This document shows, in pieces, positions 3,134 through 9,803 of a stretch of DNA of 23,805 nucleotides. The notes under the pieces are model-generated. The model saw only the letters and a program-made list of their open reading frames with translations, was not told the DNA's origin and did not search any database. The position numbers and the translations under genes were made by a program. The number at the start of each line of letters is the position of its first letter. Position 1 is the first letter of the stretch. The DNA is from a virus. Lineage: Duplodnaviria > Heunggongvirae > Uroviricota > Caudoviricetes. Where the stretch lies: the IMG/VR virus record IMGVR_UViG_2619619130_000001. One strand, written 5' to 3'.

Positions 3134-3484
3134 ATGAAAAAAAACACTAATATTCCATACTCCAAATTTCGTAATGGCGTAGAACGCCACGCTAACCGTT
3201 TCGCTATCAGTACATCACGTAGCAACACTCGCTACAGCCTGAGCGAAACACACGCTACACCTGATGGCCATCCCGTAAAACAAATTGGTGAACACACCTG
3301 GCTGATTGAGAAAGCTGGAATCGTGGTTCACAGATGCCAACGCAACCCATTTACCGGAAACCGCATTTTTGCTCTGAGCAACGGCGACAATCAGTTTGGA
3401 CAGGATTTCACGTTGTACGAAGCTCTGCGCACGGTTGATCGTCTGCTGCGTGGACAGAATTTCATTAAACAGGCTGATTTATAA
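3134..3484 (+). CDS. Hypothetical early protein
   Basis: 116-aa ORF in the early operon, tightly packed. Confidence 0.5.
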   Translation: MKKNTNIPYSKFRNGVERHANRFAISTSRSNTRYSLSETHATPDGHPVKQIGEHTWLIEKAGIVVHRCQRNPFTGNRIFALSNGDNQFGQDFTLYEALRTVDRLLRGQNFIKQADL

Positions 3485-3494
3485 CAGGTGCTTT

Positions 3495-3773
3495 ATGACC
3501 AAAGACCATGCTCAGGGTGTATTTATCCGCTTTATTGATTTTCGCGGTGAGCTGTTGTTGCGCGCATCAGCTATTGATGGAGTGGTTCCGGTAGATAAAA
3601 GCACGGCCACTTACATTTATCTGAACGGCACACGCCTGACCGTAGAGATTCCATATCAACCCGTATGCGAAATTATTAGCGAAGCTGAAAAAGCACGTCA
3701 GGTTAATGGCGATAAACCCTATCTCGAAATTATCTGCATGGATTCAGAAGCTGAAATTCAGAAGGCAGATTAA
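3495..3773 (+). CDS. Hypothetical early protein
   Basis: Internal ATG at 3495 of the 3396..3773 frame, chosen because the upstream part overlaps the previous gene; ACAGGTG precedes it. Confidence 0.5.
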   Translation: MTKDHAQGVFIRFIDFRGELLLRASAIDGVVPVDKSTATYIYLNGTRLTVEIPYQPVCEIISEAEKARQVNGDKPYLEIICMDSEAEIQKAD

Positions 3774-5181: not shown

Positions 5182-8004
5182 GTGGCAACGGAGTACATCA
5201 GAGACTGGCAACAACCACGCCATGCAGTCGGTGGCGAGGGAACGGGGGAGCCTGTCCGCCCCTCCCTTCTTTCTTCCTGGCTGGATGCCTACCGGGCAGA
5301 GAACGAGCGCCGCCAGGAAATGGCTGATGCGGCGTTCTCCGCTGCACCACTGGGCAATCTGATTAATAAAAGCCTGGACGCACAGGAAAAACAGGACAAA
5401 GCCATCACACTGGCAAGAGAAGCCAGAAAGCAGGCACGCGGTGCGGTGGATGAAGCCATGGCCTCGCTGCGTCTGCTGCCGTCCTATCTGCGTGATCCGC
5501 TTATCCGCCATCTCTCTTTCCTGCACAAAAAACAGGAATCTGGCCACCAGAAAGGCAAAAAGAACCAGCAGGCGGAACGCTATGCGAGCGGAACCCTGCG
5601 CAAAATATTCGAACGTCTGGCCCGCACCGACCGTCGCTGGCTGACTCCGGGTTATCGCTCCCTTGCCGGACGTGAACGTCTGGACGATTTGCTGTACCTG
5701 CCACAGCTCAACAAGCACCAGATACAGACGCTGGCCGTCATGACGGCGGCAATGTTCAGCAGCACCTTCGAAAAACTCTGCGATGGCTGTGGCGCGACCG
5801 ACGGCGAGCTGACCATGGATATAACGCTGAAGGCGTATCAGATGCTGGCCCGCATGGCGTTACATCTGCACACAGTGCCGCCGCATTATGACGCACTGAC
5901 AACAGACAAAGACCGGAAGAACGAACCGGACACGGAACTGCTGCCGGGTGCAATCCTCCGCCTGACCTGTGCGGACTGGTGGAAACGCAAACTGTGGCTT
6001 TTACGTTGCGAATGGAGAGAGGAACAACTCCGCGCTGCCTGTCTAGTTTCCAGAAAAACATCACCCTATCTGAGTCAGGACGCATTAAGTGAATTTCGCG
6101 CACAGCGCGAGAAAACACGCGATTTCCTGAAAAGTTTCATGCTGGAAAATGAAGACGGGTTCACGATTGATCTCGAGACAGTGTATTACGCGGGAGTAAG
6201 TAACCCGGTCCACCGTAAGGCAGAAATGATGGCCACCATGAAGGGACTGGAACTTCTGGCCGAAGCCCGTGGCGACAGAGCGGTGTTTCTGACTGTCACC
6301 TGCCCGTCAAAATACCACGCTACAACAGAGAACGGTCATCCGAATCCCAAATGGAACGGCGCCACCATGCGCGATTCCAGTGATTACCTGGTTAACACTT
6401 TTTTTAAGGCGGTCCGCAAAAAACTGAATCGCGACGGCCTGCGCTGGTATGGCATCCGCACGGTGGAGCCACACCATGACGGCACCGTGCACTGGCACAT
6501 GATGGTCTTTGCACATCCTGAAGAAATCGACAGCATCGTGGACATCACCCGTGATATTGCCATTCGCGAAGACCGCCACGAGCTGGGCAATGACATAACT
6601 CCGCGCTTTAAGGCAGAGTACGTCGACGGTTCGAAAGGTACGCCGACCAGCTACATCGCCACCTACATCGGAAAGAACCTGGACAGCCGCGCCGTGGATG
6701 GCATTGACCCGAAAACAGGCAAGCCACGCGTTGATCACGAAACCGGAAAATCAATGGCCGAGAGCGTGGAACGCGCCATCGGCTGGGCGCGCCTTCACCG
6801 CGTCCGCCAGTTCCAGTTCTTTGGTATCCCCTCCCGTCAGGTATGGCGTGAACTCCGCCGCCTTGCCAGTCAGATGGCCCGCAACCCGGAAGGTCCACAA
6901 CGTCTGGAAAATGACGCAATGGATGCGGTACTCGCTGCCGCTGATGCCGGGTGTTTTGCCACCTACATTGAGAAACAGGGTGGCGTACTTGTTCCACGCA
7001 AGGATTACCTGATTCGCACCGCCTACGACCTCGCAGAAGAGCTGAACGATTACGGCGAGCAAAGCGTACAGATTTACGGGATCTGGTCGCCACAAATCGG
7101 GGAATCTTCCCGCGTGTGCACGCACCCGGATAACTGGAAGCTGGTAAGACGTAAACCGGAAGCGGAAGACAGCGCCCGCGAAAATGGTTTTGACCTTCAG
7201 GGCGGCCCTGCCGCCCCTTGGACTCGTGGCAATAACTGTCCCCGTGTACAGGAAACGGACAACAACGGGACAGAACAGCCGGAAGAACGGCCATCACCGT
7301 GGCCGCAGCTTCCTGACGGCGTTGACGTGAATGAATGGATGCGCTCACTGAAACTGCACGAACGCCGGGCGCTGATGCGTTCGCTGCGTGACAAACAGGC
7401 AAAAAACAGCAGTGATGAAATGCAGAACTGGACACAGAGCCGCAAACAGCCACGGCCTTTGCCTGATAACCACGAGTTACTCGCTAAAGAATGGCGGGAG
7501 TCTGCTGAATCTCTCGGCCTGCATATCGGTGAACAGCAGATGCAGCACCTGTTACGGGGCGGCAGTCTGTACGTTGACGGCAGCATCATTGCACCGCAGG
7601 GATTTGAAATTGTACGCAAACCGGATACCCGCCCGGACAGCCGAATCACGCAGCTCTGGCAGCGCCTGAGCCGCAATCACGGCGTAAGCAGCACGGAGAT
7701 CCGCCATAACCCGGTCGCCAGCTATCTGGAACAGCTGGGGGCATCAGACCCCGAAGCCGCCGCACGCCTGGCATCCACACTTCAGCAGGACCAGAACACC
7801 ATGAAAACCCCCGTTACCGTGCTTTCTGACATGCTGCGCGCCATCCGTGACGCAGAGCACGCACAGAGAATCAGTGAAACCACTGAACGCGCCCACCGCA
7901 AAGCAGACCTGCTGCGGGGTAGCCTGACCAGTGGAAACAAAAAACAGACAGAAACGGGATTCACAAATCCCGTAAATGAGCAAAAAACGTGCCGCGATAT
8001 ATGA
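5182..8004 (+). CDS. A: Rolling-circle replication initiator / endonuclease (P2 gpA family)
   Basis: 940 aa; HxH metal motif (VHWHMMVFAH) and paired active-site tyrosines YIATYIGKN; position after early operon as in P2. Apparent GTG start at 5182. Confidence 0.88.
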   Translation: MATEYIRDWQQPRHAVGGEGTGEPVRPSLLSSWLDAYRAENERRQEMADAAFSAAPLGNLINKSLDAQEKQDKAITLAREARKQARGAVDEAMASLRLLPSYLRDPLIRHLSFLHKKQESGHQKGKKNQQAERYASGTLRKIFERLARTDRRWLTPGYRSLAGRERLDDLLYLPQLNKHQIQTLAVMTAAMFSSTFEKLCDGCGATDGELTMDITLKAYQMLARMALHLHTVPPHYDALTTDKDRKNEPDTELLPGAILRLTCADWWKRKLWLLRCEWREEQLRAACLVSRKTSPYLSQDALSEFRAQREKTRDFLKSFMLENEDGFTIDLETVYYAGVSNPVHRKAEMMATMKGLELLAEARGDRAVFLTVTCPSKYHATTENGHPNPKWNGATMRDSSDYLVNTFFKAVRKKLNRDGLRWYGIRTVEPHHDGTVHWHMMVFAHPEEIDSIVDITRDIAIREDRHELGNDITPRFKAEYVDGSKGTPTSYIATYIGKNLDSRAVDGIDPKTGKPRVDHETGKSMAESVERAIGWARLHRVRQFQFFGIPSRQVWRELRRLASQMARNPEGPQRLENDAMDAVLAAADAGCFATYIEKQGGVLVPRKDYLIRTAYDLAEELNDYGEQSVQIYGIWSPQIGESSRVCTHPDNWKLVRRKPEAEDSARENGFDLQGGPAAPWTRGNNCPRVQETDNNGTEQPEERPSPWPQLPDGVDVNEWMRSLKLHERRALMRSLRDKQAKNSSDEMQNWTQSRKQPRPLPDNHELLAKEWRESAESLGLHIGEQQMQHLLRGGSLYVDGSIIAPQGFEIVRKPDTRPDSRITQLWQRLSRNHGVSSTEIRHNPVASYLEQLGASDPEAAARLASTLQQDQNTMKTPVTVLSDMLRAIRDAEHAQRISETTERAHRKADLLRGSLTSGNKKQTETGFTNPVNEQKTCRDI

Positions 8005-8046
8005 AGCGCGCACAAAACAGGCAAAAGCGGGATTTAAAAATCCTGT
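7955..8046. promoter_or_regulatory. Two related palindromic boxes upstream of parM (CGGGATTCACAAATCCCG at 7955-7972; CGGGATTTAAAAATCCTG at 8028-8046); candidate ParR-binding/centromere-like or operator sites
   Basis: Imperfect ~30-bp direct repeat, each copy with an inverted repeat GGGATT-N-AATCC; the first lies in the last codons of A, the second in the A-parM gap. Confidence 0.4.
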
Positions 8047-8080
8047 AACCGATTAATTAATCAACATAAGGAAAAGCGAC

Positions 8081-9040
8081 ATGAAAATTTGTATCGACGA
8101 CGGCTCCACCAATATCAAGCTGGCATGGACTGAGAACGGCGAACGCCGCAACGCTATCAGCCCGAACAGCTTCAAGTCGGAATGGTCTGCGCCGTTCGGT
8201 GGCACGCAGCCCGCGAACTACATGCTTGATGGCGTGCGCTATGGTTTTGATCCGGTCAGCGATCGCTTTGTCCAGACGACCGACACGCAATACCAGTACA
8301 GCGATGTGAATGTCATTGCCATTCATCACGCGCTGGTCAAATCAGGCATCACACCACAGGAGGTGGATGTGGTTGTCACCCTGCCACTGAGCGAGTATTT
8401 CGACACAAACGCACAGCCGGACATGGCCAACATCAACCGCAAAAAAGCGAACGTTATGCGCCCGGTGGAGTACCAGAACGGCAAAGCATTCACTATCCGT
8501 AACGTACGGGTTATGCCTGAATCTATTCCGGCTGGCTTTAAAGCACTGGCTGACATGAGTCCGTTTGAATCCCTGCTGATTGTGGATTTAGGCGGAACCA
8601 CGCTGGATGTAGCAAAGGTTCAGGGACAACTGGCAGGTATCAGCCAGGTGTTTTGCGATCCACACGTAGGCGTTTCCCTGATGGCCGATGCAGTACTGTC
8701 GGTGATGGCCACTAACGGTATGCGTACCAGTCACCACATCGCCAATACCATTATCGAACATCGCCATGATGAAGCCTGGCTGCGCCAGCACATCCATAAT
8801 GACGCGCATTACGCCAGCCTGATGGCGGTTATTCGTGAAAAGGAAGAAACACTGAAACAACGCGTGATCCGCGCGCTGGCGGGTTTTTCGGGTTACGGGC
8901 GGGTGATGGTTGTCGGTGGCGGGGCGGAGATTGTGGCACCCGCTATCCGCGAAGCCTGCGGAGTTAATGCGACTTTCATCGCGGACGGGGGGCCACAGTT
9001 TGCTCTGGTTAATGGGCTGTACGCAATGGACAAGGAGTAA
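8081..9040 (+). CDS. parM: ParM/StbA-family actin-like segregation ATPase
   Basis: 319 aa; N-terminal CIDDGSTNIKLAW, SDVNVIAIHHAL, VMPESIPAG, LIVDLGGTTLDV and VMVVGGGAE motifs align along the length with plasmid R1 ParM as I remember it. Confidence 0.85.
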   Translation: MKICIDDGSTNIKLAWTENGERRNAISPNSFKSEWSAPFGGTQPANYMLDGVRYGFDPVSDRFVQTTDTQYQYSDVNVIAIHHALVKSGITPQEVDVVVTLPLSEYFDTNAQPDMANINRKKANVMRPVEYQNGKAFTIRNVRVMPESIPAGFKALADMSPFESLLIVDLGGTTLDVAKVQGQLAGISQVFCDPHVGVSLMADAVLSVMATNGMRTSHHIANTIIEHRHDEAWLRQHIHNDAHYASLMAVIREKEETLKQRVIRALAGFSGYGRVMVVGGGAEIVAPAIREACGVNATFIADGGPQFALVNGLYAMDKE

Positions 9041-9044
9041 ACCA

Positions 9045-9356
9045 ATGACGACTCCAACCAGACGGATAAGTTTCTATCTGAAGCCCGCCGCCGTCAAGAA
9101 CGAAGGAGAAGCATGCGCCTGGCTGGACAGCCTTACACCAGAAGCCCGCAAAAGCGGCCAACGCGTGGCTTTTCTGGCCGGGCTGGCACTTCTGAAAATG
9201 AATCCGGCAGAGGCTTACCGACTAGCTGCATGGGCTGATGATGAAGCGTTATCAGTGACACAAACCAGGACAGAACGCCCCGCATCACAGCCAGTATCAA
9301 CCGCACAGATAACCAGTCAGATGGCCGGAAATATCCGGGCGTTATTTCCTGAATAA
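9045..9356 (+). CDS. parR: ParR/StbB-like centromere-binding adaptor
   Basis: 104 aa from ATG 9045 (RBS AAGGAG); RRISFYLKP, WLDSLTPEARKSGQRVAFLAGLAL and C-terminal RALFPE resemble R1 ParR; directly follows parM. Confidence 0.72.
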   Translation: MTTPTRRISFYLKPAAVKNEGEACAWLDSLTPEARKSGQRVAFLAGLALLKMNPAEAYRLAAWADDEALSVTQTRTERPASQPVSTAQITSQMAGNIRALFPE

Positions 9357-9364
9357 CACAACAT

Positions 9365-9382
9365 CAGGGCGAGTTCGCCCTG
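9365..9382 (+). terminator. GC-rich stem-loop after parR (possible attenuator/terminator)
   Basis: CAGGGCG-AGTT-CGCCCTG hairpin seen directly; no clear U-tract, so weak as an intrinsic terminator. Confidence 0.3.
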
Positions 9383-9419
9383 CTCTCCACCTCAGAACAT
9401 AAACAAGGAGAACGACTTA

Positions 9420-9803
9420 ATGAGCGAAATCAACTATCAGGCATTACGTGAACGTTATTCACCTGTGCCAGTACCGAAATGCCCTATTTGCGGCGAGGAA
9501 ATGTCAATTCAGCGAATATCTGGAGCACAGGTTGTTTATGCCTGCTCCGGTTATGGTGATGATGGAGATTTCAAAATTGGTCGAACTCTTGCCGACGAAC
9601 ATTATGAAAAATCACGCGTAACAGTGTTGGATGTCGGGGATCCTGAAGTATTGGCGCTACTTGATTGGCTGGAAACCAAAGACAACCGAATCGCTGAACT
9701 GGAAAAAATCGCCACTGACTATGCACTTAAATTCCAGAAAGCACAGGACGCATTAAAGTACGCCGCTTTGCTGCATAGCAGGACAGCGCAGCTACAAGAC
9801 TAA
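9420..9803 (+). CDS. Hypothetical protein with CxxC zinc-ribbon-like motif and C-terminal coiled coil
   Basis: 127 aa; KCPICGEE...YACSG then heptad-like LDWLETKDNRIAELEKIATDYALKFQKAQDALKYAA; AAGGAG RBS; within the variable locus. Confidence 0.6.
   Translation: MSEINYQALRERYSPVPVPKCPICGEEMSIQRISGAQVVYACSGYGDDGDFKIGRTLADEHYEKSRVTVLDVGDPEVLALLDWLETKDNRIAELEKIATDYALKFQKAQDALKYAALLHSRTAQLQD

Follow-up and report, generated by a model that had tools for sequence, protein, structure and literature searches.

Which gene owns the two palindromic boxes that straddle the boundary between the replication gene A and the actin-like segregation gene parM in a prophage of the P2 family, and what might they do? 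The prophage in question, IMG/VR record IMGVR_UViG_2619619130_000001 (23,805 nucleotides, analysed at full length and called the window below), is assigned to the P88-like phages (Xuanwuvirus, Peduoviridae). A first-pass annotation of this DNA had proposed that the boxes could be a reduced centromere or operator for the adaptor protein ParR, or else the site controlling a parMR promoter, and had singled out their overlap with A as unusual. Here we present comparative evidence for assigning the boxes to the parMR module as a cis element, an assignment that is well supported by the sequences of diverged relatives. We further favor, with slightly more confidence than doubt, the interpretation that the two boxes and the fixed 53-bp spacer between them constitute a reduced, promoter-less parC of a phage-borne type II partition module, bound by ParR.

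Each box is a 20-bp palindrome with two 8-nt arms, embedded in one copy of a longer direct repeat (Table 1). The direct-repeat search bears out the earlier description of two related elements 73 bp apart (the start-to-start distance of the copies) and of a GGGATT-type palindromic motif, but revises its dimensions: the arms are separated by 4 nt rather than 5 or 6, and the repeated unit is about 38 nt long rather than about 30. As had also been recognized, one of the elements lies within the final codons of the replication gene, box 1 corresponding to codons -17 to -11 of A. Box 2 is located downstream of the A stop codon and ends 34 nt 5' of the parM start codon (ATG at 8081); for box 1, this distance is 107 nt. 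The conserved core of box 1 is CGGGA-N9-TCCCG, containing the dyad GGG-N10-CCC, and is also found in the Hafnia, Plesiomonas and L468/L469/L466 lineages described below. In most P88-like phages, box 2 is the perfect palindrome ACGGGATT-TCAG-AATCCCGT, and the consensus of both boxes is likewise perfect, ACGGGATT-N4-AATCCCGT. The first 16 nt of the spacer (AAATGAGCAAAAAACG) are semi-conserved, and its middle is variable.

The boxes are unique within the window. The search for further copies that the first-pass annotation had suggested, using GGGATT-N4-AATCC with at most one mismatch, gave four strand-hits in 23.8 kb, all at the two boxes (0.39 expected; none of 100 shuffles reached four). A dyad scan with a position weight matrix of the half-site scored 25.5 at 7954 and 18.5 at 8027, and at most 10.2 everywhere else. 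Neither scan detected an additional box in the 23.8 kb, the immunity/switch region included. The A-tracts between 7930 and 8060 are roughly in phase with the helix (resultant of about 0.6 at 10.3-10.5 bp, equaled by 5-7% of shuffles), a marginal hint of intrinsic curvature. Intrinsic curvature has been reported for parC of plasmid R1.

Table 1. Coordinates of the boxes and of the features around them in the window.
Feature	Position	Strand	Basis or remark
Box 1, 20-bp palindrome ACGGGATT-CACA-AATCCCGT	7954-7973		Arms complementary at 8 of 8 positions
Box 2, 20-bp palindrome GCGGGATT-TAAA-AATCCTGT	8027-8046		6 Watson-Crick and 2 G:T pairs
Spacer between the boxes, 53 bp	7974-8026		Length of 52-53 bp in all lineages
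Direct repeat copy 1, 38 nt (A-rich flank and box 1)	7938-7975		Direct-repeat search, reference copy
Direct repeat copy 2, 38 nt (A-rich flank and box 2)	8011-8048		82% identical to copy 1
Gene A, rolling-circle replication initiator	5182-8004	+	Pfam Phage_GPA; TGA at 8002-8004
parM leader with conserved ATTAATCAACATAAGGAAA (ribosome-binding region)	8047-8080	+	Alignments across relatives
parM, actin-like segregation ATPase	8081-9040	+	Pfam StbA_N and ParM C-terminal domain
parR, ribbon-helix-helix adaptor of 103 aa, candidate box binder	9045-9356	+	Pfam Plasmid_stab_B
Counterpart of the P2 origin nick site	7202-7239	+	Alignment with the P2 record (nick annotated at 29892, inside A)
26-codon open reading frame between the boxes (MSKKRAAIYEARTKQAKAGFKNPVTD)	7976-8056	+	Judged not to be a conserved gene

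Comparison of close relatives is of limited use for assigning a function. A DNA-level search of a phage collection showed the A-parM junction to be 96-99% identical to phage P88 and its relatives, and returned no more distant ones. Among approximately 80 IMG/VR loci and several GenBank phages, we distinguished 56 junction haplotypes. The loops of the boxes vary freely in this set (CACA, CACG, TAAA, TCAG, and others), one-sided changes in the arms are common, and the junction as a whole is more polymorphic than the start of parM. At 96-99% identity, no excess constraint on the boxes over their flanks is measurable, so that close relatives cannot settle the function. In one of these lineages (L079), the stop codon of A (TAG) precedes box 1. 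Some contigs (L010, L047, L052) carry 1-nt indels in the A6 runs at 7982-7987 and 7939-7944, which could be either sequencing errors or real slippage-prone sites; in L010, a 1-nt deletion joins A to the downstream frame, yielding a tail with two GFxNPV motifs, and other A-run indels truncate A ahead of box 1.

The distant relatives are far more informative. In the Hafnia lineage (L088), ParM is 95% and ParR 74% identical to the proteins of the window, and 41% of the four-fold sites in parM differ, but both boxes are kept, 73 bp apart; the A stop codon falls inside the loop of box 1, which is therefore in another reading frame. In Plesiomonas shigelloides (L465), where the identity drops to 63% for ParM and 44% for ParR, two 26-nt repeats, GCGGGACAACAAAAACCCGAAATAGC and GCGGGACAACACTAACCCACAATGGC, emerged independently from the direct-repeat search at a distance of 72 bp from each other. 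The upstream copy overlaps the final codons of A, whose tail is unrelated to that of P88; the downstream copy ends 41 nt 5' of parM. In L468 and L469 (ParM 61-62% identical), the boxes ATGGGATT-GAGG-AAACCCAG and TCGGGCTT-ATTA-AATCCCAT are 73 bp apart, end 37 nt before parM, and are located within the 3' part of an unrelated 167-aa open reading frame (ORF), the TAA of which falls inside the loop of box 2. The same pair is present at the end of a 167-aa-type ORF in L466 and L467, with a 93-aa ORF inserted between box 2 and parM; the insert lies 3' of the boxes, so that these remain at the head of the operon. The inserted ORF of L466, a metagenome-assembled Hafnia genome (positions 3143-3542), reuses a leader much like the usual parM leader.

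Across P88-type prophages of E. coli and Salmonella, L079, Hafnia, Plesiomonas, and L468/L469, the parM ATG follows the end of box 2 by 34-41 nt and that of box 1 by 107-113 nt. A repeated site upstream of parM holds its position in four lineages with ParM identity as low as 61%, and its two GGG-N10-CCC dyads remain 72-73 bp apart in coding and non-coding contexts alike. Across lineages, 14-17 of the 20 core positions of the boxes (2-6 and 15-19 in each) match, compared to 29-43% identity in the flanks. Conservation in related phages, on which the first-pass proposal had been made to depend, was therefore found.

The conserved DNA is read in all three frames: G|GGA in E. coli and Plesiomonas, CGG|GAT in Hafnia, and GGG|ATT in L468. 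The upstream stop codon wanders, lying before box 1 (L079), in the loop of box 1 (Hafnia), after box 1 (E. coli), or in the loop of box 2 (L468), and no homology was found among the upstream coding tails (P88 A, Plesiomonas A, and the 167-aa ORF of L468). Together, the use of all three frames and the unrelated upstream genes indicate conservation at the DNA level that belongs to parMR rather than to gene A. The A protein of the window is 940 aa long, and its non-conserved C-terminal tail covers box 1; residues ~800-940 (7580-8001 in the window) have no counterpart in the next-nearest A proteins, those of Klebsiella and Salmonella phages matching residues 9-796 only. As the upstream ORFs are unrelated, end at different points and have poorly conserved tails, the simplest reading is that these tails are overprinted on an independently conserved DNA element and that the overlap with A is incidental. 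The earlier suggestion that this overlap is something special is not borne out.

Both proteins encoded downstream could be assigned to their families. ParM matches StbA_N (E=3.8e-82) and the ParM C-terminal domain (E=2.5e-68) in Pfam, as expected of an actin-like ATPase, and the R1 ParM structures (1MWK) with E=9e-93. ParR matches Plasmid_stab_B (E=1.6e-24; 85.9 bits against a cut-off of 25 bits); as a single sequence, it had no match in the PDB, but a profile of 17 ParR proteins including it retrieved the ParR/StbB structure of pB171 (2JD3, E=1.2e-16). The parR gene lies directly downstream of parM, as in type II partition loci.

Every box-bearing lineage encodes a ParR with the N-terminal beta-strand TRR(I/V)SFYL (TRRISFYL in Plesiomonas, the same as in the window, and TRRVSFYLKP in L468/L469). 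Conversely, the pair is missing from P2-like phages without parMR, such as Klebsiella phage 4LV2017. In an IMG/VR scan for the palindrome, with 80 loci examined, the paired form occurred only in P88-like contigs, and the 23 single palindromes in unrelated contexts were judged consistent with chance; a metagenome scan retrieved plasmid-type parMRC loci only. The plasmid-type ParM homologs (47-59% identity) are accompanied by classical iterons and not by boxes. The link between the boxes and ParR is one of co-occurrence, not proof of binding; binding is plausible. Otherwise 96-99% identical phages carry at least two or three parR alleles (window 9045-9356; L002 2501-2815; L091). The variants are only 52% identical to the ParR of the window over the whole protein, retain residues 1-18 and the C-terminal LFPE, are replaced at about residues 60-95, and are found with the same boxes, so that the mosaic exchange affects the linker region alone.

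A neighboring subgroup of P2-like phages (L250, L268, and L269) with parMR downstream of A resembles the P88 type in part. Its ParR, 133 aa long, has the strand NRKISFYLKP, and the ~150 bp upstream of parM contain dyads flanked by A-runs, with A-run motifs about 71-73 bp apart, but no GGG-N10-CCC boxes. In this second type of upstream region (L250 1872-2023; L268; L269 1874-2029), a GC hairpin is enclosed by a 14-32-nt inverted repeat (GAAATAGAAAAATG / CATTTTTCTATTTC) and accompanied by a CCGTTTAAACGG palindrome. The region occupies the same place in a different arrangement, and other genes intervene between it and A in two of the three phages. The left flank of box 2 in P88 contains AACAGGCAAAAACGGGA, which is also present in L269. 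The arm sequence TTTTTCTATAT of this subgroup resembles the plasmid-type parC iterons in L094, L097 and L098.

ParMRC is the textbook actin-like machine of plasmid segregation, with centromeres portrayed as the par promoter surrounded by many arrayed iterons. Dam and Gerdes reportedly characterized the parC of R1, the type II ParMRC system. In the known type II loci, parC is located immediately upstream of parM (PMC2241845), the position of the boxes, which supports their interpretation as a parC. The parC of R1 consists of two sets of five direct 11-bp iterons spread over 159 bp and flanking a 39-bp spacer that ParR leaves unbound and that holds the promoter (Hoischen et al. 2008, PMC2241845); ParR autoregulates this promoter and binds as one dimer per 11-bp iteron (PMC2241845). 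The window shares with R1 a cis site upstream of parM followed by parR, an arrangement of two blocks separated by a spacer, a ParR of the same ribbon-helix-helix Pfam family, and a clearly homologous ParM. It differs in having two 20-bp palindromes, that is, four inverted half-sites over 93 bp (7954-8046; consensus ACGGGATT), without a detectable promoter, in the overlap of the site with the coding end of the upstream gene, and in the nature of the replicon, an integrating P2-like phage. The plasmid-type parMRC loci (for example, L386, L097, and L095) have the same gene order, and their ParR proteins have a related N-terminal strand pattern, R-K/R-x-S/A-F, but are about 140 aa long; in these loci, 11-bp direct iterons (spacings 11, 11, 51, 11) flank a near-consensus TTGTTA-16-TATAAT promoter, and GGGATT boxes are absent.

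A consensus scan for sigma-70-like promoters found none in positions 7600-9500 of the window, in L465 or in L468, a result compatible with a weak or activator-dependent promoter, whereas the same scan recovered TTGTTA-16-TATAAT in the plasmid-type control L386. By eye, the loop of box 2 offers weak -35-like hexamers, and an ATTAAT resembles a -10 element; these candidates were inconsistent across lineages, went uncalled by the scan, and were dismissed. Tandem iterons of 10-11 bp were likewise not detected in the window by a tool that finds them in L386. The core of the earlier proposal, a cis site of parMR, is supported by the recurrence of the pair, its spacing and its distance from parM in four lineages; the alternative of a promoter control site is not supported.

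A reduced parC could operate as follows. The parM and parR genes would be transcribed together with gene A from a P2-type early promoter and so would be silent in the lysogen. After infection or induction, ribbon-helix-helix ParR dimers would occupy the inverted half-sites ACGGGATT in each box. The centers of the half-sites within a box are about 12 bp apart, near the iteron period of R1, and the boxes, 73 bp or about 7 helical turns apart, would lie on the same face of the DNA, so that both could build one small nucleoprotein complex. Such a complex would capture the ends of ParM filaments, which would move or position circular or replicating phage DNA. The lack of a dedicated promoter would make biological sense, avoiding an active centromere in the lysogen. 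The distribution of the element fits a par site of this kind, nearly all copies being in integrated prophages: the junction was detected in 1304 of 5426 complete E. coli genomes (about a quarter, O157:H7 strains included), at 1441 chromosomal places and 2 on plasmids.

Several observations weigh against a reduced parC. Only four half-sites are available, compared to ten iterons in R1, and no additional iterons were found; a canonical parC holds the par promoter and acts as its operator, whereas no promoter was detected here. A covariation test would need more variation than the sequences of the boxes and of the ParR beta-strand offer. In E. coli, polymorphism is not visibly lower in the boxes than in the flanks, and one common variant, GGGACT (box 1, in 27% of the distinct box combinations), weakens a half-site. 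Finally, a degraded prophage (L470) retains parMR without gene A and without either box, the breakpoint lying immediately 3' of box 2. This remnant, from the chromosome of E. coli EC7518 (positions 1380-1545 of L470), is a deleted prophage in which parM-parR directly follow a DUF4761 gene.

A system with a role of the kind proposed here is known from the Corynebacterium glutamicum prophage CGP3, in which AlpC, AlpA and alpS comprise an actin-like filament, a DNA-binding adaptor and sites upstream of the operon (PMC5539076). The roles proposed for AlpACS are the movement of circular phage DNA and the support of its replication once the prophage is induced, and alpS consists of a short repeated TTAAnnG motif in a promoter region, seven repeats of which were used in assays (PMC5539076). 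The proteins are unrelated in sequence to ParM and ParR, the host is Gram-positive, and CGP3 is not P2-like. We tentatively entertain, at somewhat less than an even chance, the broader notion that the boxes represent a minimal ParMRC centromere of P2-like prophages, composed of two palindromic ParR sites, promoter-less and overprinted, which would be active only after induction or infection and would position or segregate replicating phage DNA. It would then be a Gram-negative counterpart of AlpACS and the smallest type II centromere known. Literature searches, including ones aimed at this phage group, found no description of a parC in P88-like phages.

If a reduced parC is indeed present, a promoter-less site with four half-sites would define the minimal DNA required for loading ParR and capping ParM filaments. 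Mutants of the boxes would provide a handle on why a phage that integrates into the chromosome retains a plasmid partition system, which might, for example, position replicating genomes, serve a transient plasmid state, or influence lysogenization or burst. The element is very common in E. coli. Furthermore, a DNA site overprinted by the variable tails of unrelated genes calls for caution in the annotation of the A C-terminus in P88-like phages.

Among the alternatives, the one that survives best, albeit as an unlikely one, is that the boxes bind a different protein, either a host factor or a phage regulator, which gates read-through or translation from A into parMR. Palindromic 20-mers with half-sites one helical turn apart would suit a helix-turn-helix dimer as well, there is no detectable promoter to autoregulate, and the boxes sit at the very boundary between the replication and the par genes. 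However, ParR is the only DNA-binding protein that accompanies the boxes in all lineages, the upstream genes and the other regulators being different, and the P2-like phages devoid of parMR are devoid of the pair as well. Given that no further copy occurs in the switch/immunity region or elsewhere in the 23.8 kb, the boxes are not an operator of the C/Cox type.

A little less probable still is that the palindromes act through nucleic acid structure, as RNA hairpins between A and parM, as minus-strand terminators, or as single-stranded DNA hairpins of the strand displaced during rolling-circle replication. In E. coli, each box is predicted to form an 8-bp hairpin (-10.7 and -8.8 kcal/mol for boxes 1 and 2, respectively), and the plus-strand RNA prefers a long-range pairing of box 1 with box 2 (z=-3.9), for which L079 has one compensatory change. 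In addition, box 1 in L468-type sequences shows a double change from C-G to T-A; such symmetric changes are, however, equally expected of a palindrome that binds a dimer. The predicted stability decays across lineages (-7.1 in Hafnia, -4.9/-4.2 in Plesiomonas, where only 3-4 outer pairs close a 10-nt loop, and -4.6/-2.7 kcal/mol in L468) although the GGG-N10-CCC dyad and the spacing persist. The changes are mostly one-sided and break pairs, with the GGGACT variant producing a C.A mismatch at position 7/14 of box 1, and the long-range pairing, opposed by the common one-sided mismatches and unsupported outside L079, was rejected. Neither strand of 7700-8300 had a match in Rfam 15 at E<=1. A terminator-like signal in the window is limited to the minus strand of box 1, with an A-run ahead of each palindrome in P88-type sequences; such signals were confined to the P88 and L269 types, the U-tract being absent in L465 and L468, and no minus-strand gene requires termination at the boxes, so that minus-strand terminators were rejected as well.

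Another possibility, which we consider quite improbable, is passive conservation, whereby the boxes, now functionless, are either a recombination linker or the relic of a duplication at the left edge of a mobile parMR cassette. The junction is indeed mosaic and unusually polymorphic in E. coli, with patchy multi-nucleotide variants and 1-nt A-run indels among the haplotypes; similarity between lineages begins at box 1, and different genes adjoin the pair. Nevertheless, neutral DNA would not be expected to hold GGG-N10-CCC twice, together with a spacing of 72-73 bp and a fixed distance to parM, across lineages with heavily diverged synonymous sites in parM, and the freely diverged loops and mid-spacer imply that mutation had time to act.

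Least probable is that the repeats are protein-coding, either as a duplicated KQxxxGFxNPV motif at the end of A, reached by a frameshift on the A6 run at 7982-7987, or as a 26-aa micro-protein. In favor of a coding role, the two copies are in matching register and encode similar peptides, neither the 7990 nor the 7993 substitution alters the product of the small frame, E. coli, Salmonella and Hafnia types all keep the ORF open, and the L010 deletion fuses A to it. However, of the codon changes in the ORF between E. coli and Hafnia, 12 are non-synonymous and 2 synonymous (counted on the alignment), while ParM differs at 4% of its residues. The ORF is missing from L468 and from Plesiomonas, where the sequence reads ATG ACG TAA and box 2 contains an in-register TAA; it is disrupted in 2 of the 56 haplotypes, lacks a Shine-Dalgarno sequence before its ATG, and bears a varying relation to the frame of A (+1 in E. 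coli, in frame after the TGA in Hafnia), so that, with box 1 itself read in three different ways among lineages, the peptide-repeat, micro-ORF and frameshift readings were all rejected after the comparisons with Hafnia, Plesiomonas and L468.

The boxes were also considered as the origin or nick site of A and rejected, being dissimilar to the P2 nick site, the homolog of which lies about 730 bp upstream. The aligned sequence, GCGGCCCTGCCGCCCCTTGGACTCGTGGCAATAACTGT, is nucleotide-identical in the Hafnia relative and, from CCCCTTGG on, in a Klebsiella phage whose A protein is 42% identical; it is likely the origin of this phage.

Two database records deserve mention. NZ_CP148288.1, a 34,461-bp E. 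coli record deposited as a non-mobilisable plasmid, has the size of a phage genome and encodes the window-type ParR; it may represent a P88-like phage in an episomal state or in its induced, circular form. A P88-like junction with a ParM 98% identical to the E. coli type was also found in a record titled Vagococcus sp. WN89Y (L092), where its occurrence in a genome labeled as Gram-positive probably reflects assembly contamination or mislabelling.

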